From assembly GCA_050122535.1 (NCBI GenBank), contig JASFIT010000002.1, forward strand, positions 1-36,444: DNA of 36,444 bases. Direction: 5' to 3'. The DNA is from Desulfobacteraceae bacterium. GTDB taxonomy: Bacteria; Desulfobacterota; DSM-4660; Desulfatiglandales; HGW-15. This document shows positions 1,174 through 27,817 of this stretch, piece after piece. Numbering within the stretch: position 1 is the stretch's first letter; the number at the start of each line of letters is the position of its first letter. The position numbers and the translations under genes are program-made. The notes beneath the pieces were generated by a model that made no database searches, was not told the DNA's origin, and saw only the letters and a program-made list of their open reading frames with translations.

Positions 1174-1845
1174 TTATTCTCCTTTACCGTGAAATGCGCC
1201 ATTGAAATGTTTAATGGCGCGAGCATGCTTTCCTTTATCATCGTGGCATCTGCGACAGGTGAAAAGTACGTTATGTCCGTCTGTTTTGCCTGGCACCTTC
1301 AGCTTCCTCCGCTCTGGATCCTCAGCATGCTTTCTACTAGGTCCATGACACGTCTCACATCCCACATTAATCTCAATGAATCTTTTTGTTTTTGGGTTCA
1401 ACCCTACCGTATGGCAAGGACCGCAACGCAGACGATAATCTTGATTGGTCCACACACTCCTCATTATCCATTTCTGTTTTCTAAGATGATATAGATACGG
1501 GAATACTTTCCAGTTTTTATCTACAAATGCCACTTTGTTTCTGTCCCCGACTATAAGAAAAACATTATCCCCTTTAATTGGACTATTATGCCAATTGCCC
1601 GGAAGCGATTCTGAAGCATCACTCCTGTATCGAACGAAATGGGACATGTGTTTTCCTGACCAATCTTCATATTTTCCTTGATGACAATTTACACATGCAT
1701 TGGAGCCAATGTAATCCTCTATCTGGGCTTCAGCTGTTATTCCTACGTCACGGACTTGTGTGGCACCACTAGATGCTTTTAGAAACAGAAGCGCAAAAGC
1801 TATGCCTGCAACATAAGTAATATTCTTGCTGCCTTGAGATATCAC
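1174..1845 (-). CDS. Secreted tetrahaem c-type cytochrome
   Basis: GTG start with GGAG 6 nt upstream and a hydrophobic N-terminal signal. Four CxxCH motifs: CVNCH, CGPCH, CETCH, CRRCH. Convergent with glk, with only 3 nt between the stop codons. Confidence 0.8.
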   Translation of the reverse strand: MISQGSKNITYVAGIAFALLFLKASSGATQVRDVGITAEAQIEDYIGSNACVNCHQGKYEDWSGKHMSHFVRYRSDASESLPGNWHNSPIKGDNVFLIVGDRNKVAFVDKNWKVFPYLYHLRKQKWIMRSVWTNQDYRLRCGPCHTVGLNPKTKRFIEINVGCETCHGPSRKHAEDPERRKLKVPGKTDGHNVLFTCRRCHDDKGKHARAIKHFNGAFHGKGE

Positions 1846-2040
1846 CTAGTACTCCATGTTGGATTTCTCAGTGTCTGGATTTCATTAAGATTACAGTTCG
1901 TAACACTTAAAGTCGATAAATTCAAGATTACCCATTAGTCTATAGTTTTTGCAAGTAAAGGTGTATGAATTTGAAGAAATAAATAAGGGGTGTTTTAATG
2001 AGTTGCTTATATATCAATGGAGGTCCCCGTTCTCACAAAG

Positions 2041-2073
2041 AAAAAGGCAGAACCGTGATGACCCTGCCTTTTT
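2041..2073 (-). terminator. Rho-independent terminator of the small Arg-rich gene
   Basis: AAAAGGCAG-N13-CTGCCTTTT hairpin. On the minus strand it is followed by TTTTTCTTTG, 23 nt past the stop at 2096. Confidence 0.7.
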
Positions 2074-2095
2074 CATGGAAAGATTATTCGAAGAT

Positions 2096-2311
2096 TTACC
2101 GGGCCGTAATCTTCCAAAGCGACAGATCGCCTATGAACACACTGCTCCACTTCGTCGCTCTAACCCAATCCTTTCTTCGCTCGTTTTGCGACCTTCGCTC
2201 TATCCAACTTCTCCTCTCCACGCCTCCGTTTAAGAAGTAGTCAAGACTATGCGCCTTTCGTCTATCACTTCCTGAGCGTCTATCGATGGGAGATCGCTCC
2301 TTCTTTGGCAT
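2096..2311 (-). CDS. Small basic protein (71 aa) with tandem [DE]RR[SK] hexad repeats; function unknown
   Basis: ATG is preceded by AGGAG 9 nt upstream, and the gene has its own terminator. Sequence contains DRRS-GS-DRRK ... ERRS-WI-ERRS-QN-ERRK. Confidence 0.6.
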   Translation of the reverse strand: MPKKERSPIDRRSGSDRRKAHSLDYFLNGGVERRSWIERRSQNERRKDWVRATKWSSVFIGDLSLWKITAR

Positions 2312-2490
2312 GTTAATAATCTCCTGCCACTCTCTCCGATTTATCGTTATCTAGTATATATAACTATATGTTGTGTGTCAAGTGGTTAGTAATACAGGAT
2401 ATGGTATCCTGGTGGCGTTGCACCCAAGAGGAATTTTTGAAGGATCACATTACTTAACAAGTTAGCTAATAATGCGACCACCACTGTTAA

Positions 2491-3213
2491 TTAGAGGAGG
2501 TATTCCGGCTTTACATTCTGGAGGGCGTGAAAGATGTTTCCTTTGATCTTTTTATTGGTTCTATAGAAATCCCTTAGCATTTTCTTGACATCTTCTCTTT
2601 TTGAAGAGCCCGCTGTGGGGCAACCCAAGTCTATCTTAGGCCATTCCATGGACTTGGCATACCTCCTTATCTTGTCTTCTTCAAGCATGTATAGAGGTCT
2701 TATCGCCGTGACCTTTCCATTAAAGAACTCCTGAACGGGCAGCATGGTGCTTATGGACGCACCATAGAAGATGTTTAAGAAAAATGTTTCAATCAGATCG
2801 TCCTTGTGATGACCAAAGGCGATCTTGTTGCACTCCAATTCACCGGCTATTTGGAAAAGGATCTTTCTTCGGAGGCGAGAGCAGAGGAAGCACGGGTTCT
2901 CCCGGTTTTCTGGTCCGTGCGCCTTCGGACCAATATCGCTTTGCAGAACCCGATACTCAAAACCATGCTCCGAAAAGAAAGATTCCATCTGCCCTGCAGA
3001 GTCAGCACCGAAGCCGGGATCCACATGGACTGCAGTGATCTGGTATTCAATGGGTATTTTTTCTATTCGCTCCCTAAGAAGCCACAAAAGAGACATGCTA
3101 TCCTTTCCACCTGATACGGCCACGAGCACATGATCCCCGTCTTCAATCATCTGCCGGCTGTTTATGGCCTTACCCATCAACCGCTTCATTTCTTTATTTA
3201 CATAATTTGCCAT
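2491..3213 (-). CDS. ttcA: tRNA 2-thiocytidine(32) synthetase TtcA-like PP-loop ATPase
   Basis: SGGKDS PP-loop, NPCFLCSRLRRK CxxC motif and AFGHHKDDLIETFFLN, all typical of the TtcA family. Confidence 0.85.
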   Translation of the reverse strand: MANYVNKEMKRLMGKAINSRQMIEDGDHVLVAVSGGKDSMSLLWLLRERIEKIPIEYQITAVHVDPGFGADSAGQMESFFSEHGFEYRVLQSDIGPKAHGPENRENPCFLCSRLRRKILFQIAGELECNKIAFGHHKDDLIETFFLNIFYGASISTMLPVQEFFNGKVTAIRPLYMLEEDKIRRYAKSMEWPKIDLGCPTAGSSKREDVKKMLRDFYRTNKKIKGNIFHALQNVKPEYLL

Positions 3214-3252
3214 TTGCCACTGGAATTAGCCACAGTCCCAAAGAAAAAGAAG

Positions 3253-3335
3253 TTTAGACAAGATTCTTAATCACGAAAACACAAAAAAGCTCCTAGACAG
3301 GATTTACAGGATCGCCCGGACAAGAAAAGGAGCGG
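3253..3335 (+). repeat. Interspersed intergenic repeat, second copy of the family seen at 1..91
   Basis: TTAATCACGAAAACACAAAAAA (3267..3288) and TAGACAGGATTTACAGGATCGCCCGGACAAGAAAAGGAGCGG (3294..3335) match the reverse complement of the window start. An extra TTTAGACAAGATT half-copy sits at 3253..3265. Confidence 0.6.
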
Positions 3336-3462
3336 TGGGAACCCCAATACCCCGACTCGTAGGGCGGGTATCCCTCAAAAAATTTTTTTGACACGGGTTT
3401 CGCGTAGCGAAACACACGGATTGCACGGATATATCAACACAGGCTGAATGATCGCTCACAAA

Positions 3463-3486
3463 CTCCCCGCACACTGGTGCGGGGAG
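3463..3486. repeat. REP-like perfect hairpin CTCCCCGCAC-ACTG-GTGCGGGGAG; possible weak terminator for yggS
   Basis: 10-bp perfect stem. It shares the core CCCCGCAC/GTGCGGGG with the hairpin at 14240..14272. On the minus strand only TTTG follows. Confidence 0.6.
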
Positions 3487-3541
3487 GCCTTGATGACTCA
3501 CATTGCGTCTGCGGAAAAGTCTGTGTGTGACTCCGGCTTAA

Positions 3542-4228
3542 TTACCCGTATTCGCGTTCGCCGAAGATCTTTGTGCCTATCCTGACCATGTTGGCGCCTT
3601 CTTCAAGGGCCACCTTATAGGAATTGGACATGCCCATGGAGAGATATCTCATCTCTACATTGGGCAAATGCATTTCTTTCAGTTTTTCAAAGATCTCGCT
3701 CGTCTTTACGAAGTAAGGTCGGGCGTCCTCCGGATCGCCTGTGAATGGTCCCATGGTCATGAGGCCCATGATTTTTATATGTTCCAGAGCCGACATCTCC
3801 TGGATCAAAGTGAGGGCATCATCTGGCAGGACGCCTGCTTTCTGAGTCTCCTCACCGCTGTTGATTTCGATCAACACGGGCATTACCTTATCGATTTTGC
3901 CGCAACACTTGTCAATTTCCCTGGCAAGCTTCATGGAATCGACCGTTTCTATCATGTCGAAAACCCTGACAGCCTTTTTCGCTTTGTTCCGCTGAAGATG
4001 CCCTATCATGTGCCACTTGGCCCTGTTTCCAACAACCTGGAAGGCTCTCTCTGCCTCCTGCACATAATTCTCGCCAATGATCTCCAGACCGGCTGCCACG
4101 GCCTCGTCAATTTCTTCAGGCGTTCTAGTCTTTGCTGCGCCTACCAGATGAACACCCTCTGGCAGTTCCGCCAATATCTCTTTCACGTTTTCCTTAATCA
4201 TCTTCCGCCCCTTCCCATTGCCGTCCAA
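3542..4228 (-). CDS. yggS: YggS-family pyridoxal-phosphate homeostasis protein
   Basis: VGAAKTRTPEEI and HMIGHLQRNKAKK motifs; ~225 aa, typical of the family. An alternative ATG lies at 4201 (MIKENVKEIL). Confidence 0.9.
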   Translation of the reverse strand: MDGNGKGRKMIKENVKEILAELPEGVHLVGAAKTRTPEEIDEAVAAGLEIIGENYVQEAERAFQVVGNRAKWHMIGHLQRNKAKKAVRVFDMIETVDSMKLAREIDKCCGKIDKVMPVLIEINSGEETQKAGVLPDDALTLIQEMSALEHIKIMGLMTMGPFTGDPEDARPYFVKTSEIFEKLKEMHLPNVEMRYLSMGMSNSYKVALEEGANMVRIGTKIFGEREYG

Positions 4229-4332
4229 AAAATACTCGAAACCTCAATTAGGGATACATCAGCACTTGATTCTTCTCAATGCAGTCTGAAAGCAAGAAAT
4301 GGGTTTGTCTTATGTTTTCAGGAATAAGTAAG

Positions 4333-4414
4333 CCCCCCTTTGCTAAAGGGGGGTCGGGGGGATTTCATGACGGCCTTTTAAAAATCCCCCTCTATCCCCC
4401 TTTATAAAAGGGGG
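4333..4414. repeat. Cluster of three C-run/G-run hairpins (intergenic palindromic repeat)
   Basis: CCCCCC-TTTGCTAAA-GGGGGG (4333..4353), GGGGGGATTT...AAATCCCCC (4356..4390) and CCCCC-TTTATAAAA-GGGGG (4396..4414). Confidence 0.6.
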
Positions 4415-4613
4415 AAGCTAATGTGATCCTGTACCAAAAAGGGTTTTTATGGCAATGCTGCCCAAGTGTAAATCGATTTTGGACAGGAGTGATCCCCTCC
4501 AAGAATAGAGATACTCCAATTCATGAGGCGTGTAAAGACACATGGCGGAAGAAGTGCGTGGTGACGAAAAAACCCCTGGCTGCGCCACGGGTTACTTTCT
4601 TAGCAGGTGGATA

Positions 4614-5021
4614 TTAGTGCTTGCCAGGATCGAGGGGTACCCCGCGTCTCTCCCATGTAATATAGGCCTCCAGGGCAATCATTTTGGGATCGTCCAGCTC
4701 CATGGGCTCACCCTCCAGGGGATTTTCAATACACCAGTTGATCATATCCCTTAAGGTAGCTACAGAACCTATCTGTTTTTGAAACTTGGGATAGGTTTCT
4801 GGGTGGGTATTGGATGCATTGGGATGGCACATATCACAAGAAACACTATTGGTGCCGAGTGCACTGTGGAAGAGTTTTTCCCCTTGGATAACCACATCCA
4901 TAAAAGCGTCCTGCCATTTTTTGAGATCTTCTTTTTTAAATTCATCGGCTCTCAGGCCCGGGATTAGGCTTGCCGCCAAGATAAATGCTAGACTTACACA
5001 GAGAATGACTTTGTATCTCAT
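4614..5021 (-). CDS. Periplasmic monohaem c-type cytochrome
   Basis: The ATG at 5021 is preceded by AAAGGAGGG 5 nt upstream. Signal peptide MRYKVILCVSLAFILAASL and a single CDMCH motif. LRDMINWCIENPLEG...IALEAYI resembles the SoxA/TsdA-type cytochrome fold; that resemblance is from memory, not searched. Confidence 0.75.
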   Translation of the reverse strand: MRYKVILCVSLAFILAASLIPGLRADEFKKEDLKKWQDAFMDVVIQGEKLFHSALGTNSVSCDMCHPNASNTHPETYPKFQKQIGSVATLRDMINWCIENPLEGEPMELDDPKMIALEAYITWERRGVPLDPGKH

Positions 5022-5051
5022 AAGAACCCTCCTTTGGCCACCCCCACTCAA

Positions 5052-5074
5052 CCCTCCCCCTTCAAGGGGGAGGG
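5052..5074. repeat. Intercistronic hairpin CCCTCCCCC-TTCAA-GGGGGAGGG
   Basis: 9-bp perfect stem between the stop of 5095..6171 and the start of the cytochrome gene. Same C-run/G-run style as 4333..4414. Confidence 0.6.
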
Positions 5075-5094
5075 CAGGGAGGGGGTATTATCTT

Positions 5095-6171
5095 TTAATA
5101 ATGCATTTGCGGTGGTATTCGTTTTGAAGGATCCTGGTACTGTGAATCCATGAAATGCCCAGCCTTTTCGTCGTATGCGATGGTTCTTGATGTGTTTTCC
5201 CATAAATCAAAATGCTGGGATACTCGGCCAGTTTCAAGAGTAACCTGAGACCATCCGGTCGCATCTCTTTCATGAAACGGGTCTGCCCGATTCATAAAGA
5301 CGGTCATCTTGGGTACCATGTTGCGTTTTTGGTTGTAGCTGACCGGATAAGGCCAAGGCCATGCGGTGGACATCCACGCTTGAAAGCTGATGTTTTCGAT
5401 CTGATTATAGAGAATCTGATGGACATGGCCATGCAGAACGGTCACCTTCTTGAATGGCCTTATTAAACTCTGGACCAGCTCCGCATCATCTGTCCAGAAG
5501 TTCCAAGGCTTAAAGACCTTGTAAAGTGGTGAATGAGACAAAACGATGATTGGTGTATCATGGCTCACTTTGGAGAGGTCTGTTTTCAACCAGTTGATCT
5601 GCTCGAGTCCCACCATGAAGGGTGACCCTTGGGGATTGTCGAGTCTGGCCATCTGTAACATCCGCTCTTCGGGGGTGCGCCAGCGTCTAATCCAGTCTTC
5701 ATAGGTGAGAATGCTGTTCAATACGACAAAGTGAACCCCTTTATGATCGAAGCTATAATAAAGCTTGCTCACTTTCTGTTCCCAGTACTTTCCCATATCC
5801 AGATAGAAGTCATGTTCTCCAATGACGAACTTAATAGGGACCTCAATCTTGGAAAGCATTTCCAGTCCGTGATCGATCTCCTCTTTTTTACCAAGCTGAG
5901 CGAGATCCCCGCCGAAGACAATAAAATCAGGTTGAGGCCACATGAGGCCGATCTCAGCGACCGCTTGCTGCAATCCCTTGTCAAAGTTATTCACAAATTT
6001 TGTGCCCTTGATATGGGTGAGATGGGAGTCAGAAATGACGCCAAACGTAAATTTTTCTCCCTCCTTTCCCCAGCAAACGTCAACGAGTTTCAAGGGCAAC
6101 ATGGACGCAGCTGTGAATGTGGCCGTTGCTTTCAAGAAAGACCGTCGTGTCATCGACTTTCCTTTAGACAT
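5095..6171 (-). CDS. Tat-exported calcineurin-like metallophosphoesterase
   Basis: The ATG is preceded by AAAGGAGG 6 nt upstream. Twin-arginine signal MTRRSFLKATATFTAASMLP. Metallophosphoesterase motifs VISDSH, FGGDL, IGEHD, LSHSP and LHGHVH. Confidence 0.8.
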   Translation of the reverse strand: MSKGKSMTRRSFLKATATFTAASMLPLKLVDVCWGKEGEKFTFGVISDSHLTHIKGTKFVNNFDKGLQQAVAEIGLMWPQPDFIVFGGDLAQLGKKEEIDHGLEMLSKIEVPIKFVIGEHDFYLDMGKYWEQKVSKLYYSFDHKGVHFVVLNSILTYEDWIRRWRTPEERMLQMARLDNPQGSPFMVGLEQINWLKTDLSKVSHDTPIIVLSHSPLYKVFKPWNFWTDDAELVQSLIRPFKKVTVLHGHVHQILYNQIENISFQAWMSTAWPWPYPVSYNQKRNMVPKMTVFMNRADPFHERDATGWSQVTLETGRVSQHFDLWENTSRTIAYDEKAGHFMDSQYQDPSKRIPPQMHY

Positions 6172-6210
6172 GATTTACCTCCTTTCTAACTAAGGGTTAA
6201 GCATATCTTA

Positions 6211-7320
6211 TTATTTATTCAAATTCTTGAATTCCGGGCTGGTCAATGCCTTCATAAATTCAATGATGTCTTTAATTTCCTGGTCTGTGAGGTCAAGGAC
6301 TCGAACGCTGCCCAAAAAGGGGTTCTTCTCGCCACCTTTATTATATAGCTCCATCACTTCTTCCAGCGTCTTCATACTCCCGTCATGCATGTAAGGACCC
6401 GTAGCCGCGATGTTCCGTAAGGTAGGTGTTTTGAATGCACCTATATCCGATGTTTTCAAAGTGACGACAAAGCGACCTAATTCAGAGATCTCCGCATCGC
6501 TGAATTTTGATGTATCAGGTTCTCTGCCCTGCTGTTTTGCCATCCTAAATTCTCTGACCATTTCGCGGAGCCGAGGCTGAATTTTCTTAAAGCCTACACC
6601 CAGGTTGTGGAATTTGTTGTCCGTGAAAATGGCATGGTTTTCGCTGATCGCATGGCATTCCTGACAACGGGCTTTTCCCTTATAGAGCTCCAACCCCCTT
6701 ACGGCAGACTCAGAGAGTGCCGTCTTGTCCCCACCATAAGCGTACCGGTCAAAGGGGGAATCACCAGAAATTACCGTTCGTTCGAAACTGGCGATGGCCT
6801 TGACCACATGGTCAATGGTAATCTGTTCCGGCTTAACACCGAATACACGTTTAAATTCCTCCATATACCCTTTATCCTTCCGGATCACGTTGACAATGAA
6901 GTCGTGAAACCCATGTTCTTTGCCAAGCCCGTGTTCCACAGGGTTCAAAAAAGGGTCTTTGGCCTGCTCTTCCAGGCTAAGACGGCGGCCGTCCCAAAAC
7001 TGGCTCGTGTAAAAGGCTGAATTGATTACAGTAGGTGAATTGCGGGTCCCCTTGAGCTTTTTGATCCCCTCTGCCACGGGCAATCCATCAGCAAAGGCCT
7101 TTACCGGATCATGACAATGGGCGCAACTGATGGTCCCATCCGCGCTGAAGCGCTTGTCTACAAACAGCTTTTTCCCCAAGGCAATTTTTTCTGCCGTTTG
7201 AGGATTCTCCTCTGGTATGGGCACGGGAGGCAAACCCAATGGAGGCTTTTCCTGGGACAAAGGACTGCCTGTCCATAAAAGGATTGAAAGACCGGTGCAC
7301 AAAAGAATTATGGTCCTCAT
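6211..7320 (-). CDS. Di-haem cytochrome c peroxidase (CCP/MauG family)
   Basis: Signal peptide and two haem motifs (CAHCH, CQECH). FKTPTLRNIAATGPYMHDGS is typical of bacterial CCP. Only 39 nt upstream of the metallophosphoesterase gene. Confidence 0.85.
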   Translation of the reverse strand: MRTIILLCTGLSILLWTGSPLSQEKPPLGLPPVPIPEENPQTAEKIALGKKLFVDKRFSADGTISCAHCHDPVKAFADGLPVAEGIKKLKGTRNSPTVINSAFYTSQFWDGRRLSLEEQAKDPFLNPVEHGLGKEHGFHDFIVNVIRKDKGYMEEFKRVFGVKPEQITIDHVVKAIASFERTVISGDSPFDRYAYGGDKTALSESAVRGLELYKGKARCQECHAISENHAIFTDNKFHNLGVGFKKIQPRLREMVREFRMAKQQGREPDTSKFSDAEISELGRFVVTLKTSDIGAFKTPTLRNIAATGPYMHDGSMKTLEEVMELYNKGGEKNPFLGSVRVLDLTDQEIKDIIEFMKALTSPEFKNLNK

Positions 7321-7429
7321 TTCACTCCCCCCTTTAAAAGAATTCTGGGACTAAGAGGGCTTTCTGAAGGCTTAAGCAAGCCCAAAACGCTGCGTCCCAT
7401 AAGTAGCAAATATTCTCCGCCTAATTTCC

Positions 7430-7843
7430 TCATGCATTGGAGGCTCGAGCCCTGCACTCTGAACATATGCCATAATATTCCAGCCTGAAGTTTTCCACTT
7501 GGAAGCCAAATCTTTCTTTTACTTCGCTAGCGTGGATGGTCGATCCTTCTTCAAAATCCTGTATCTTGCCGCATGAAGTGCAAATGAGGTTTATGTGAGG
7601 GGCCTGATTGGTTTCGTGGCGATTGTCCATTGCCTGAAAGTCCAAGATCTTAATCAGCCCCATTCGGGCGAGCGTTTCTAAGGTATTGTAGACCGTAGCC
7701 AAGCTCAGTCCAGGGTGATCCTTCTTCGCTTCTTGAAAGACTTGTTGCGCACTGGGGTGGGCGTCAGTATTGGCGAGGAAATTCAATATAGCCTTACGCT
7801 GCCGGGTGAGACGATACCCGGCTGCACGAAGTGCCTTTTCCAT
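7430..7843 (-). CDS. Fur-family metalloregulator (Fur/PerR/Zur type not resolvable)
   Basis: 137 aa with a winged-helix region LSLATVYNTLETLARMGLI. Paired CxxC motifs (CTSCG, CSECR) typical of the Fur-family structural Zn site. Confidence 0.8.
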   Translation of the reverse strand: MEKALRAAGYRLTRQRKAILNFLANTDAHPSAQQVFQEAKKDHPGLSLATVYNTLETLARMGLIKILDFQAMDNRHETNQAPHINLICTSCGKIQDFEEGSTIHASEVKERFGFQVENFRLEYYGICSECRARASNA

Positions 7844-22873: not shown

Positions 22874-24172
22874 GTGGCGGTCATGATAAAGCCTGAAAGA
22901 ATCGAAGACTTGAGTCCTGAACAGTTGAAAGGAATCATGGAAAGATCTATGGAGGATATCTCCACTGTGTATGAGGAGATGCGTAAGATCGTAGAAGATA
23001 TCAGGGGTAACGGAGATGCCGTCTCCCTAAAGCACTACAAAAAGCACAAGGAGGACATCTCCCCAGCGGACCTTGAGGCGACCCGAGAAGAGATAGAGGA
23101 GGCCTACAAGGAGCTAGATTCAAAGGTGTTAGATTGTCTCAAGATTGCGGCTGAGAACATTACCAAGTTCCATCGTGCTCAGCTTGAGAGGGACATGTGG
23201 TCTATAGAGATTTCAGAGGGCATCCTGGCTGGTCGAATGACCAGGGCGATGGATATTGTCGGTTGCTACATTCCCGGAGGAACGGCGGCCTACCCCAGTT
23301 CCATTCTGATGACAGTTCTGCCGGCCAAGGTGGCTGGCGTCGGAACTATTGTGGCAGTGACCCCTCCCAGTAAGGGGATGGTGGCAACCCCCGCCACCCT
23401 GGTGGCAGCGGATCTGGCAGGCTGCGATCGTATTTTTAAGGTGGGAGGTCCGTGGGGCGTAGCGAGTCTGGCCTATGGAACACAGACCATACCAAGGGTG
23501 GACAAAATCGTGGGACCAGGGAACAAATATGTCACCGCTGCGAAAATGATCGTCTACGGTCAAGTGGATATCGATTCTCCGGCAGGCCCAAGCGAGGTCT
23601 TGATTTTGGCTGATGAGACGGGAGATGCGGATTTGATCGCTGTGGATTTTCTATCTCAGATAGAGCATGATCCAGACTCAGCAGCCGTGTTGGTCACCAC
23701 CTCAGAGAATCTGGCAAAAAAAGTCAGCGATTTGATCAATGGGGAATTTGAGTCTCTTCCCAGAAAAGAGATCTTTGAATCTTCGCTCATCAAGCACTCC
23801 CGCGTGCTGGTGGCCAAGGATATGGAGCAGGCGATCGATTTTACAAACGAGTATGCGACTGAGCATCTTCAGATCCTCACGGAAGACCCCTTTATTACCC
23901 TAAACAAGATAAACCACGCTGGATCCGTTTTTTTGGGGCCCTATGCTCCTGTCCCAGTGGGTGATTATGCATCTGGGACCAACCACGTTCTCCCCACGGG
24001 CCAGTGTGCACGCATGTTTTCGGGTCTTTCAGTGGATGACTTCATCAAAAAGCCCACGTTCCAGTATTTGAGCAAAAAGGGTCTGTCCAGTCTGAAAGAG
24101 GTGGTCGTGACACTTGCTGAAGCAGAAGGCCTTCCCATGCATGCTAAGGCAGTCCAAGCACGATTCAAATAG
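22874..24172 (+). CDS. hisD: Histidinol dehydrogenase
   Basis: IVGPGNKYVTAAK, SQIEHDPDS and GDYASGTNHVLPT motifs. I prefer the GTG at 22874 (AGGAGA 8 nt upstream, giving 432 aa). The track start at 22784 would translate an intergenic palindromic repeat. Confidence 0.93.
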   Translation: MAVMIKPERIEDLSPEQLKGIMERSMEDISTVYEEMRKIVEDIRGNGDAVSLKHYKKHKEDISPADLEATREEIEEAYKELDSKVLDCLKIAAENITKFHRAQLERDMWSIEISEGILAGRMTRAMDIVGCYIPGGTAAYPSSILMTVLPAKVAGVGTIVAVTPPSKGMVATPATLVAADLAGCDRIFKVGGPWGVASLAYGTQTIPRVDKIVGPGNKYVTAAKMIVYGQVDIDSPAGPSEVLILADETGDADLIAVDFLSQIEHDPDSAAVLVTTSENLAKKVSDLINGEFESLPRKEIFESSLIKHSRVLVAKDMEQAIDFTNEYATEHLQILTEDPFITLNKINHAGSVFLGPYAPVPVGDYASGTNHVLPTGQCARMFSGLSVDDFIKKPTFQYLSKKGLSSLKEVVVTLAEAEGLPMHAKAVQARFK

Positions 24173-24315
24173 TTTCCGAAATGGAAGCGGTTCTTTTCCG
24201 CAATCTCTGCGTCAATCTTCGGGATTTGCTTGTGCGACATACTCATGGTATGCCTCCGTGCAATCCCTTGATTTTCTTGACCTTGCAGAAAACTCCTCGT
24301 TTCCATTTCGGAAAC
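24172..24315. repeat. 18-nt inverted repeat pair flanking a 108-nt segment immediately after the hisD stop
   Basis: GTTTCCGAAATGGAAGCG (24172..24189) matches the reverse complement of CGTTTCCATTTCGGAAAC (24298..24315) at 17 of 18 positions. Confidence 0.6.
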
Positions 24316-24575
24316 CGACATGGTTTGGTAACGAGATATTAGGCGCCAAAGACGCCGTGAATAAATTCTAAATTCAAATATCTTAAGCAATGAAGCTCTC
24401 CGCCGAAAGTGTACTGTTAAGTCTTTGGTGATTTGAGTTTGGGATTTGAAAATTGTTTTCTACTTTGCATTTGGGATTTGGAACTTTTGACCGTATACGC
24501 GGCTCTTATTTTGGTCTCCGTATGTCGATGGAGCTTCGGTAAGCTCATAATAACTAGCAAGGAGGAGGTTGCACT

Positions 24576-25016
24576 ATGGCTGATATCAAAGGCTACAACA
24601 TGCCAGATGAACTCTATTACCACGAGGAACATAGCTGGGCGCGAGTGGACGGCACAAAAGTGACCGTTGGAATGACGGATTTTTTCCAAAAGGAGGCAGG
24701 CGATATCGTATTTGTGGATCTTCCCGATGAAGAAGACGAAGTGAGTCAGGGCGAAGTCTGCGGGAAAATCCAGTCAAGGAAATGGATCGGCAACCTCGTC
24801 GCCCCTGTCTCCGGTGAGATCGTGGAGCTGAACGAGGAACTGGAAGAGGATACCAGTCTTATAAACACAGATCCCTATGGTGGGGGCTGGATAATTGTCA
24901 TCGAGGCGAGCGATCTGGAAGCAGACTTGGGGAATCTGATCCAAGGGGACGCTGTTGCGGATTTTGTGGAGAAAGAGATCAAGAAGGCCGAGGAGGAGAA
25001 GGCCAAGGCTGAATAA
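24576..25016 (+). CDS. gcvH: GcvH-family lipoyl-carrier protein (glycine-cleavage H protein or LbpA-like)
   Basis: HSWARVDG...VGMTDFFQKEAGDIVFVDLP and IQSRKWIGNLVAPVSGEIVELN. K69 aligns with the lipoyl-lysine of canonical VESVKAASDIYAPVSG. Strong SD AAGGAGGAGG. Confidence 0.85.
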   Translation: MADIKGYNMPDELYYHEEHSWARVDGTKVTVGMTDFFQKEAGDIVFVDLPDEEDEVSQGEVCGKIQSRKWIGNLVAPVSGEIVELNEELEEDTSLINTDPYGGGWIIVIEASDLEADLGNLIQGDAVADFVEKEIKKAEEEKAKAE

Positions 25017-25018
25017 AG

Positions 25019-26086
25019 ATGGCAGAACGTTGGCGTCTTTTCAAAAATATATCAAGAGCTGTTTCCACTGCCGAAGGACTGGCTCTGGACGACACCCTAC
25101 CGCAATCTGTGGCTCATCATCAATCCCCGCCAATACTCCACCTTTACACATTCGTCCCATCCGTCATTGTGGGTAAATACCAGGATATTGAGGCGGCCCT
25201 GAGGCTTGATAGATGCAGGGCAAGGGGGATTGAATACAACCGGAGGAGCACGGGCGGTGGCACGGTCATAATGGGGCCCGAGATCGTCGCATTGGGCCTG
25301 GGGATCAACGTGGATTATCCTGGACTCAAAGGGGGATTAGGAGGGGTCTTCGAACCCCTGGCCCATGTTTTGTGTAAGGCCTTAGAGGGATTTGGCATTC
25401 AATCCTATTTTCAGCCCAAAAATGACCTGGAAGCTGCTGGGAAGAAGATAGCAGGGTTGTCCGCAGCCTATGAGACAGGGAGGAGTTTGCTCTTTCACAC
25501 CAGTCTGCTCGTGGACTTCGACGTCCCGCTGATGACAGATATCATGAATACTCCCTTAATCAAGCTCAGTGACAAGGGGTACAACTGTTTCAGCCAGCGA
25601 ATGACCACTGTCTGCCAAGAAGTTGGAGAAGATGTCCCTGTAAAGCGAGTGGTGGATGCCATCGAGATATCCTTTGAAAAAGAATTCGGAATCGTTTTCC
25701 AGAAAGACGAACCAGATGACTGGGAAAGAGAGGTTATTCAGCGCTACAGCAGGGAGAGGTACACCAACCAGGCATGGATCTTTTCCCATAAGCATCCAAG
25801 AGCCAGGATGGGATTGGGCAGGCTTAAGACCAGGGGAGGACTTTTGGAGATCTACCTTGCCTTGTCAGGCGGATCCATTGAGAATGTGATTATCACTGGG
25901 GATTTCTTTTCCACCAGTGAGGATATCAACCGCCTTGAGAAGGCGCTGAAATGGACTTCAGCACGAGAGGAAAGCATAGGAGAAAATCTTTCAAGGGTAT
26001 GGAAGGATGACATGATTTATGGCCTCGACGTCCCTTCTCTAACCAAGGCTATTATTAAGGCTAAAGAAAACCAAGTTAGGTTATAA
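25019..26086 (+). CDS. Lipoate-protein ligase (LplA-type, catalytic plus C-terminal accessory domain fused)
   Basis: 355 aa. LHLYTFVPSVIVGKYQ, RRSTGGGTV and GKKIAGLSA (conserved catalytic Lys region of the BPL/LplA/LipB fold). Starts 2 nt after the gcvH-like stop. Confidence 0.8.
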   Translation: MAERWRLFKNISRAVSTAEGLALDDTLPQSVAHHQSPPILHLYTFVPSVIVGKYQDIEAALRLDRCRARGIEYNRRSTGGGTVIMGPEIVALGLGINVDYPGLKGGLGGVFEPLAHVLCKALEGFGIQSYFQPKNDLEAAGKKIAGLSAAYETGRSLLFHTSLLVDFDVPLMTDIMNTPLIKLSDKGYNCFSQRMTTVCQEVGEDVPVKRVVDAIEISFEKEFGIVFQKDEPDDWEREVIQRYSRERYTNQAWIFSHKHPRARMGLGRLKTRGGLLEIYLALSGGSIENVIITGDFFSTSEDINRLEKALKWTSAREESIGENLSRVWKDDMIYGLDVPSLTKAIIKAKENQVRL

Positions 26087-26204
26087 CATTTTGGATTTTG
26101 GATTTTAGATTTTGAAAAGCTGTCTTGTACCCTCCAGGACCGTTTGGCTGGAGTTAAGAATATAAAGACCTTTGCTAATAATGCGCCAAAGGTACTTGGC
26201 ATCC

Positions 26205-26233
26205 TTTTGTCCGGCCAGGTCGGCCGGACAAAA
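26205..26233 (+). other. Perfect 12-bp intercistronic hairpin TTTTGTCCGGCC-AGGTC-GGCCGGACAAAA
   Basis: Lies between the ligase gene and the radical-SAM gene. No U-run follows, so it is more likely an mRNA processing/stability element or a repeat than a terminator. Confidence 0.6.
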
Positions 26234-26270
26234 TGTCTGCGTAGGTCTGCGGCTAACAAGACCGAGAAAA

Positions 26271-27311
26271 ATGTCAAACGAAATTCAAAGCCCTGAATAT
26301 GTGAAAATGAGCCATGCCACGGCCATCTCTCTCGGGTTGATGGAGGGGAGGATGTATCGCGGCGCGGTGAACCGATGCGTGAACCTGCTGTATCATTACC
26401 CTGAAGGGTGTTCTGCTAATTGTGCTTATTGTGGCCTGGCCAAGAGGCGTCCCGGAACCTATGAAGAAAAGAGCTTCATTCATGTGGATTGGCCCATATA
26501 CCCGATGGATGAAGTCATTGATGCCATCAACAAGGCCCCTCCATACGTTAAACGTACCTGTATCTCCATGATCACCAACGGCAAGTGCCGCCAGGACACT
26601 CTGGTGTTGGCGCATCGGCTGAAAAATGAAACCGCCATTCCCGTTTCCGTCCTTATCAGCCCCACCATACTAGAGAAGGAAGATTTGGTCGCCATGAAGG
26701 AGGCGGGCGTTGATAAGGTGGGTGTGGCCATAGACCTGGCCACACCAGAGCTCTTTGACAGGTACCGGGGAGCTGGTGTTTCAGGACCCCACAGATGGCA
26801 GAAATACTGGGAAATTCTGACGGCAGGCCTTGACGTTTTTGGGAAGCTCCATGTTGGCGCCCATCTCATGGTGGGTCTGGGTGAGACGGAAAAGGAGATG
26901 GTCTCCTTGATGGAGAGAATGTGGCAGATGGGTGTTGTGAATCACCTGTTTTCATTCTTTGCAGAGGAAAGTTCCGGCCTGGCCGCCCGACCCCAGCCCC
27001 CTTGGCCCAATTACTTGCGGATACAGTTGGCCCGGTATCTGATCGAGCATGAACGGTGTTGTTTTGATGATATGAAATTTGACGGGCCCGGACGCATCAT
27101 TGATTTTGGGCTTGCCCCGGATACATTAAACCAAGTCATAAACGTTGGCGCACCCTTCATGACCACAGGTTGTCTGGGACCAGATGGAAAAGTGGCCTGC
27201 AACCGCCCCTTTGCTAATTGCCTGCCTGATGTGAAGCAGTGGAACTATCCCTACACGCCCAATGCTGAGGAGCTCACCCTCATCCACGAGAATATCTTTA
27301 AAATGGGATAG
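26271..27311 (+). CDS. Radical SAM protein, biotin-synthase-related / LipS-like (not LipA)
   Basis: GCSANCAYCG (Cx3Cx2C) near the N-terminus. C-terminal Cys triad CLGPDGKVACNRPFANC. I saw no N-terminal Cx4Cx5C and no RSSY tail. I prefer the ATG at 26271, because the TTG at 26172 would translate through the hairpin. Confidence 0.75.
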   Translation: MSNEIQSPEYVKMSHATAISLGLMEGRMYRGAVNRCVNLLYHYPEGCSANCAYCGLAKRRPGTYEEKSFIHVDWPIYPMDEVIDAINKAPPYVKRTCISMITNGKCRQDTLVLAHRLKNETAIPVSVLISPTILEKEDLVAMKEAGVDKVGVAIDLATPELFDRYRGAGVSGPHRWQKYWEILTAGLDVFGKLHVGAHLMVGLGETEKEMVSLMERMWQMGVVNHLFSFFAEESSGLAARPQPPWPNYLRIQLARYLIEHERCCFDDMKFDGPGRIIDFGLAPDTLNQVINVGAPFMTTGCLGPDGKVACNRPFANCLPDVKQWNYPYTPNAEELTLIHENIFKMG

Positions 27312-27369: not shown

Positions 27370-27446
27370 GGGCCGTTAGCTCAGTTAGGCAGAGCAGCGG
27401 ACTTTTAATCCGTTGGTCACAGGTTCGATTCCTGTACGGCCCACCA
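27370..27446 (+). tRNA. tRNA-Lys (anticodon UUU), CCA encoded
   Basis: Cloverleaf folded by hand. Acceptor GGGCCGT/ACGGCCC, anticodon arm GCGGA-CTTTTAA-TCCGT, T arm ACAGG-TTCGATT-CCTGT, discriminator A, then CCA. Confidence 0.95.
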
Positions 27447-27690: not shown

Positions 27691-27768
27691 GTCCCCATCG
27701 TCTAGCCAGGTCCAGGACACCGGCCTTTCACGCCGGCAACACCGGTTCAAATCCGGTTGGGGACGCCA
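27691..27768 (+). tRNA. tRNA-Glu (anticodon UUC), CCA encoded
   Basis: GTCCCCATCGTCTAG...CCGGCCTTTCACGCCGG...CCGGTTCAAATCCGGTTGGGGACGCCA. Near-identical in architecture to E. coli tRNA-Glu as I recall it. Confidence 0.95.
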
Positions 27769-27776: not shown

Positions 27777-27782
27777 TTAAGA

Positions 27783-27817
27783 GGGGTTAGGACAATTCCT
27801 AATCCCTTGTTTATTTT
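27783..27817 (+). terminator. Rho-independent terminator after tRNA-Glu
   Basis: GGGGTTAGGA-CAAT-TCCTAATCCC (10-bp stem with one G-U pair), followed by TTGTTTATTTT. Confidence 0.8.

Follow-up and report, generated by a model that had tools for sequence, protein, structure and literature searches.

Lipoic acid can be made by a second route, that of LipS1/LipS2, which has been recognised only recently, and the closest characterised counterpart of the enzyme considered here is LipS2 of Thermococcus kodakarensis (TK2248; Jin et al. 2020; Neti et al. 2022, PMC9585515), a radical S-adenosylmethionine (SAM) protein with a BioB-like fold and an N-terminal Cx3Cx2C motif. Its gene accompanies those of a lipoate ligase and an H-protein, and the enzyme inserts the first of two sulfurs, the order of insertion being C8 and then C6 (PMC9585515). 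Its auxiliary-cluster ligands are C85, C276 and C279 (PMC9585515). The bacterial sLpl(AB)-LipS1/LipS2(-LipT) pathway (Tanabe et al. 2023, PMC10332631; Cao et al. 2018, PMC6067878) combines a ligase of fused LplA and LplB parts with LipS-type enzymes beside the carrier protein, in clusters ordered lipS1-lpl(AB)-lipS2-lipT, and the published survey records the pathway in Desulfobacterota. LipA and BioB likewise carry out radical-SAM sulfur insertion at an unactivated C-H with a sacrificial auxiliary Fe-S cluster. Here we describe a 36,444-nt stretch of a Desulfobacteraceae genome (contig JASFIT010000002.1; hereafter the window, meaning this stretch at its full length), in which three adjacent, co-directional genes on the forward strand encode a GcvH-type carrier, an Lpl(AB) ligase and a LipS2-type radical-SAM enzyme. 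We read the locus as a lineage-specific member of the established lipoate pathway of a ligase with LipS1/LipS2; its peculiarities are that lipT and lipS1 are not adjacent, that its LipS2 belongs to a divergent branch, and that its H-protein carries a tryptophan directly after the lipoyl-lysine (K-W).

Open reading frames (ORFs) were taken from a mechanical ORF list for the window and scanned with Pfam and NCBIfam models. The original prediction, made from the letters alone, had placed three co-directional genes at this position, the second a 355-residue LplA-type ligase with a fused accessory domain beginning 2 nt past the stop of the carrier gene; the ORF list agrees on the positions and on the ATG of lpl(AB), and Pfam on the domains (Table 1). 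For the radical-SAM gene the list starts at a TTG at 26172, but translation more likely begins with the ATG at 26271, which yields the 346 residues numbered below; we prefer this shorter form because the TTG form crosses a hairpin, and because the conserved N-terminus of relatives and their lpl-lipS2 spacers, 0–44 nt in many of them, fit the ATG. Of the other window ORFs scanned with Pfam, which are mostly housekeeping genes, none matched GcvT, GcvP, LipA or LipB, in line with the predicted lack of gcvT and gcvP, and the window ORFs showed no further radical-SAM gene. A six-frame search of the window with profiles built here for LipS1, LipS2, the ligase and GcvH matched the trio genes only, which upholds the earlier statement that a single LipS-like gene is present; the Cx3Cx2C motif occurs in no window ORF of at least 80 residues other than the radical-SAM gene of the trio, and Hdr-like genes are absent from the window.

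The radical-SAM protein has one strong NCBIfam match, to LipS2 (NF053743; 205 bits, E = 1.7e-60, model positions 1–292 of 292), with the next-best matches at E = 2e-11 or worse. Against BioB (TIGR00433) it scores 26 bits for a cutoff of 225, against LipA (PRK05481, PRK12928) about 18 bits for cutoffs of 203–210, and against the BioB and PylB models 19–26 bits. Both predicted cysteine motifs, CSANCAYC and C-x8-C-x6-C, can be read directly in the 346-residue sequence, as C47-x3-C51-x2-C54 near the N-terminus and C301-x8-C310-x6-C317 near the C-terminus; the former is invariant in 34 sequences of the clade to which the window belongs and in 54 of the wider branch around it (group B, described below). 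The predicted lack of LipA hallmarks also stands, neither the N-terminal Cx4Cx5C motif nor the RSSY tail being found in the sequence. An AlphaFold2 model (predicted local distance difference test score 93.9) has BioB, PylB, LipA and HydE as its best folds in the PDB, as expected for a BioB-like sulfur-insertion enzyme; LipA and BioB are the closest solved folds (8vdw, 1r30, 5exj), at 12–16% identity in structural alignments, and no sequence relative was found in the PDB. Together these results support the assignment of the protein as LipS2-type rather than LipA, BioB or HydE.

The resemblance to TK2248 extends to the auxiliary cysteines. As in that enzyme, three further cysteines stand at invariant positions, one after strand 2 in the family motif RxC[IV]S (RxCIS; C97) and two in the C-terminal GC...CNRP motif (C301 and C310), in columns that are cysteine in 85 of 90 aligned LipS2-family members, the canonical ones included. 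This alignment used canonical LipS2 family members and not the T. kodakarensis sequence itself; the Cx2C spacing of the canonical members fits C276/C279 of T. kodakarensis. C97, C301 and C310 thus stand at the positions expected of LipS2 auxiliary-cluster ligands by their columns in the family alignment. Identity to canonical LipS2 representatives is about 30%. A short insertion widens the GC...CNRP spacing in most of group B, and in comparison with TK2248 the window protein has a 6-residue insertion that turns GCxxCNRP into GC-x8-CNRP (x8, not x2); it differs further in scoring below the NCBIfam cutoff and in having no LipS1 gene nearby. Beyond the six cysteines expected for two LipS2 clusters it has three more conserved ones, extra also with respect to TK2248. 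Many group-B proteins share C36, whereas C106 and C317, present without exception in the clade loci sampled, are found in few group-B proteins outside it. A CC pair at 263/264 was considered as a LipS1-like CC motif and rejected, as it is not conserved in the clade.

A scan of 1.84 billion representative proteins yielded 822 relatives, and a tree of the full-length ones separates a canonical group from group B with 99% support (Shimodaira–Hasegawa-like approximate likelihood ratio test), the window protein lying in group B. Model comparison and phylogeny were the check proposed with the original prediction, and they place the protein with LipS2 and give no clustering with BioB or HydE. Tested members of the canonical group reach 320–336 bits against the LipS2 model, while group B ranges over 160–242 bits (the window protein, loci L047, L062 and L103, and proteins P0122–P0130). 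Five group-B LipS2 proteins with LipS1 as fusion partner or neighbour likewise fall below the 270-bit equivalog cutoff (207.7, 216.2, 221.3, 239.9 and 242.1 bits); this cutoff shuts out the whole group-B branch and hence says nothing against LipS2 function. Two group-B proteins, P0123 and P0126, consist of a LipS2-like domain joined to a LipS1 domain, which in P0126 scores above the LipS1 cutoff. Single-chain candidate lipoyl synthases occur in both orders in the representative library (P0123, P0126, P0172, P0253): LipS2-LipS1 in group B (675 and 683 residues) and LipS1-LipS2 with a canonical LipS2 (645 and 683 residues). In public databases group-B proteins are named only 'radical SAM protein' or 'biotin synthase'.

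To place group B in its genomic setting, 80 metagenome loci were scanned with the profiles built here, of which 60 had flanks long enough to judge lipS1 adjacency; lipS1 directly adjoins lipS2 in 54 of these, and the loci usually include a ligase gene and often one for an H-protein. The neighbouring LipS1 of L103 scores 244.7 bits for an NCBIfam cutoff (NF053742) of 230 and the others 215–228, their LipS2 partners scoring 221–242 bits. The single strong NCBIfam match to LipS2, and a branch that holds LipS2-LipS1 fusions and usually stands beside LipS1, ligase and H-protein genes, bear out the proposal of a LipS-type module. Two cluster types are closest to the window. L047 has the order gcvH-lpl(AB)-lipS2-lipS1, that is, the window order plus lipS1, with 66% identity in GcvH, 48% in the ligase, which is of the same type, and 50% in LipS2. 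The commonest group-B cluster, of which the six genes at L062 (4461–11125) are an example and which recurs in L049, L078, L083, L092, L093, L097 and L107, encodes a GcvH, an HdrD/DsrK-like CCG iron-sulfur protein, an Lpl-DUF116 fusion, a GGR-like flavoprotein (LipT type), LipS1 and LipS2. Both share the LipS2 branch with the window, at 46–52% identity, and the K-W signature of the H-protein, but have lipS1 directly beside lipS2, which the window clade does not; the window cluster is a stripped-down version of the two. A sub-branch at 55% identity (L029, L030, L031, L034) has the lipS2-like gene with neither gcvH nor lpl; in L031 and L034 this gene follows that of a large hybrid sensor of PAS/histidine-kinase type, and one metagenome-assembled genome (MAG), nDJH13bin5, holds two near-identical copies on different contigs (L029 and L034).

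The order hisD-gcvH-lpl-lipS2 is kept in about 28 loci from uncultured MAGs assigned to Desulfobacteraceae, Desulfatiglandales or 'Deltaproteobacteria', which argues that the trio is no chance arrangement, with LipS2 identities of 67–89% across these loci. In the tree this clade is nested in group B among LipS1-partnered sequences, on a stem branch that is not exceptional, and the separation of lipS1 from lipS2 is on this ground a derived state of the clade. We also searched for LipS1 proteins, with a profile of four LipS1 domains and with the LipS1 of L103 (that of L047 would, in hindsight, have been the better query); among the best 120 matches of each search, which were archaeal or from Poribacteria, Aerophobetes, Chloroflexi and similar groups, none was named Desulfobacteraceae or tied to the MAGs of the clade.

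The carrier was predicted to be of the GcvH family with K69 in the register of the canonical lipoyl-lysine, and it aligns with E. coli GcvH end to end, K69 (QSRKW) falling on the lipoyl-lysine (ESVKA) and APVSGEIV following in both. It matches Pfam GCV_H at 128 bits and passes both NCBIfam GcvH models (NF002270, 140.9 bits for a cutoff of 117; TIGR00527, 124.7 for 115.85), and CGKIQSRKWIG is invariant in 25 carrier sequences of the clade. With an isoelectric point of 4.1, 36 acidic against 12 basic residues and a single cysteine (C62) it is acidic and lacks the two cysteines of LbpA, a protein marked by a pair of conserved cysteines, one towards each terminus, by basic patches on its surface and by sHdr genes in its neighbourhood (PMC6067878; bioRxiv 10.64898/2026.10.01.755906). 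We therefore rejected the carrier as an sHdr-type LbpA: it is an acidic GcvH-type protein with one cysteine, not a basic two-cysteine LbpA as in the sLpl(AB)/LbpA systems, and it has no sHdr context.

The ligase has two domains above the Pfam cutoff, LplA-B_cat (119.7 bits) and Lip_prot_lig_C (36.8 bits, LplB-type, C-terminal), and scores 145.7 bits against TIGR00545, under its equivalog cutoff of 280. The conserved RRxxGGG motif and the catalytic lysine expected of such ligases are represented by RRSTGGG (75–81) and K143 (GKKIAG), neither of which varies within the clade. Its nearest solved structures are the ligases 1vqz, 6jom, 5ij6 and 2ars (Streptococcus, Mycoplasma, Enterococcus and Thermoplasma), E. 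coli LplA being far more distant than these four, and it is 48–57% identical to the ligases of L047, L090 and L103, with LipS1 adjacent as well in L047 and L103; this is indirect evidence that it may belong to sLpl(AB), the ligase clade coupled to LipS, which is of archaeal origin (Tanabe et al. 2023).

On this evidence we consider it probable, short of confident, that the trio is a ligase-plus-LipS lipoyl-assembly operon acting on a dedicated H-protein, with LipS1 encoded elsewhere in the genome. In the mechanism, each step of which we infer from family membership, Lpl(AB) would activate free octanoate (or scavenged lipoate) with ATP and attach it to K69 of the H-protein, the LipS2-type enzyme would cleave SAM via its Cx3Cx2C cluster and draw on an auxiliary cluster held by C97, C301 and C310 to place a sulfur on C8 of the octanoyl chain, and a LipS1 encoded elsewhere would then add the sulfur at C6. 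In the Desulfobacteraceae/Desulfatiglandales lineage, lipS1 (and lipT) would have left the operon, and gcvH-lpl-lipS2 would have become fixed behind hisD. Relocation of lipS1 from the operon, within the known Lpl-LipS1/LipS2 pathway, is more likely than its loss because the branch is LipS1-partnered and even fused to LipS1, because the stem branch of the clade is unexceptional, and because the S4 Table of Tanabe et al. (PMC10332631) counts 100 Desulfobacterota genomes that combine LipS1, LipS2 and a ligase, and LipA in 89 of them. Several points weigh against it. No LipS1-like ORF was found anywhere in the window or in any of the 34 clade loci, five of which extend 10 kb to both sides of lipS2, and lipS1 is adjacent in none of the 15 informative clade loci, a sharp contrast to the 54 of 60 elsewhere in this putative LipS2 branch; the neighbourhood holds no reductase like LipT; the radical-SAM protein scores 205 bits for a LipS2 cutoff of 270; and it carries the extra clade-invariant cysteines C106 and C317.

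In a first alternative LipS1 has been lost in the clade, with the LipS2-type enzyme inserting both sulfurs, handing an 8-mercaptooctanoyl intermediate to LipA, or making a mono-thiol end product. The broken adjacency, the window with no LipS1-like ORF, the two clade-invariant cysteines and the strong constraint on the radical-SAM protein across family-level MAGs all fit such a loss, and the lack of named Desulfobacteraceae among the best 120 matches of each LipS1 search points weakly the same way. However, the clade is nested among LipS1-partnered enzymes on an ordinary stem branch, C36 and C106 are seen as well in LipS1-fused and LipS1-partnered proteins, the characterised LipS2 does one insertion and is inactive on mercapto-octanoyl substrates (PMC9585515), and lost adjacency is common and does not equal gene loss. 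We regard the loss of LipS1 as unlikely, and a LipS1 encoded away from the operon as the better reading.

A different explanation concerns the purpose of the carrier rather than the fate of LipS1: the H-protein may be a separate redox carrier with its own ligase and LipS enzyme, served by a second, target-specific lipoylation route, with LipA/LipB and an ordinary gcvTHP elsewhere. The tryptophan after the lipoyl-lysine speaks for it, as K-W, within the pattern [QE]S-x-K-W-x-G, is found in all 21 H-protein genes near group-B lipS2 (including those of L047, L052, L053, L062, L072, L078, L083, L092–L097, L104, L107, L111, L114 and L116), and the solved GcvH proteins with printed alignments have K-A, K-S or K-T at this site; K-W may be the sign of a separate subfamily of H-proteins in co-evolution with the LipS machinery. 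In the L062-type cluster the H-protein gene adjoins that for the HdrD/DsrK-like protein, a neighbour which hints at a lipoyl-disulfide redox role for the putative carrier in organisms that do not oxidise sulfur. The lack of gcvT and gcvP in the window fits as well, as does LipA in 89 of the 101 Desulfobacterota genomes with LipS1/LipS2 in the survey. Against this, the carrier passes both GcvH models, is as acidic as a GcvH and lacks the LbpA cysteines, and the window holds no Hdr-like gene; such a route seems rather unlikely here, though it is compatible with, and not exclusive of, an operon that relies on a LipS1 encoded elsewhere. The boldest combination of these ideas, which we consider quite improbable, is that this abundant clade has lost LipS1 and that its LipS2-type enzyme, with C106 and C317 by the auxiliary-cluster motif, would act as a one-component lipoyl synthase on the K-W H-protein or make an 8-thiol cofactor.

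The reading in which the radical-SAM gene has no functional link to its two neighbours, but encodes a BioB-, HydE- or PylB-like enzyme that acts on another substrate beside a plain lipoate-salvage pair of gcvH and lpl, is highly improbable: the 184-nt spacer with its hairpin that divides lpl from the third gene here and the structural neighbours BioB, PylB and HydE would allow it, but 19–26 bits for BioB and PylB stand against 205 for LipS2, the spacer is short in many relatives and its hairpin not conserved, the three genes keep together in the loci of the clade, and relatives of the protein are fused to LipS1.

That spacer was singled out in the original prediction for a perfect 12-bp hairpin ahead of the radical-SAM gene. 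The perfect stems (26205–26216 and 26222–26233, around the loop AGGTC) are indeed present, but the hairpin is not a conserved feature: L002, a relative with 89% identity, lacks it, as do the other clade loci compared. Nor is it a classical terminator, since no T-run follows it. On these two grounds we rejected it as a terminator or a conserved regulator. The 0–44 nt spacers of many relatives imply co-transcription of lpl and lipS2. Short GGATTT-type repeats (TTGGGATTTG..., TTTTGGATTTTGGATTTTAGATTTTG) lie at 24437–24480 before gcvH and at 26089–26119 after the lpl stop; in the lpl-lipS2 spacers of relatives GGATTT occurs once at most.

Table 1 Coordinates of the trio, of three additional conserved cysteine codons and of the neighbouring tRNA genes and hairpins within the window.
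Feature	Position	Strand	Basis or placement
gcvH-type lipoyl carrier, 146 aa	24576–25016	+	Pfam GCV_H, NCBIfam GcvH models
lpl(AB), putative lipoate/octanoate-protein ligase with fused accessory domain, 355 aa	25019–26086	+	LplA-B_cat and Lip_prot_lig_C
Putative LipS2-type radical-SAM sulfur-insertion enzyme, 346 aa, group B	26271–27311	+	NCBIfam LipS2, tree
C36 codon	26376–26378		
C106 codon	26586–26588		
C317 codon	27219–27221		
Terminator-like hairpin with T-run	24172–24188	+	Consensus scan only; directly after hisD
Perfect 12-bp hairpin, TTTTGTCCGGCC-AGGTC-GGCCGGACAAAA	26205–26233	+	Sequence and fold
tRNA-Lys(UUU)	27370–27446		Directly downstream of lipS2
tRNA-Glu(UUC)	27691–27768		Downstream of lipS2, after tRNA-Lys
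Terminator-like 12-bp hairpin with T-run	27781–27808	+	Consensus scan; after both tRNA genes

Upstream, the 400-nt spacer between hisD and gcvH contains a terminator-like site, and this hairpin directly after hisD suggests that the trio may form a transcription unit of its own. In one wetland metatranscriptome, contigs match lpl and the 3' end of lipS2, the latter running into the tRNA genes and showing nine differences, which probably denote a related strain; these contigs are weak evidence that the trio is expressed. The organism is present in many wetland and sediment metagenomes. Elsewhere in the window, at 1174–7843 on the reverse strand, lies a cluster of periplasmic redox and iron genes, encoding a multihaem cytochrome c, a protein with a SoxA/TsdA-type cytochrome domain, a metallophosphoesterase, a di-haem cytochrome c peroxidase/MauG-like protein and a Fur-family regulator.

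For the LipS2 family these results reveal an annotation gap, in that a branch which in bacteria usually stands beside LipS1, a ligase and an H-protein falls under the curated family cutoff. The conserved tryptophan after the lipoyl-lysine marks H-proteins that may not be glycine-cleavage subunits. Within the branch, one abundant sediment lineage keeps lipS2 with its carrier and ligase and without lipS1. If LipS1 is simply encoded at another site, the consequence is one of bookkeeping in annotation and in synteny-based pathway surveys; if LipS1 is absent, the enzyme would need a chemistry beyond that known for LipS2 enzymes.

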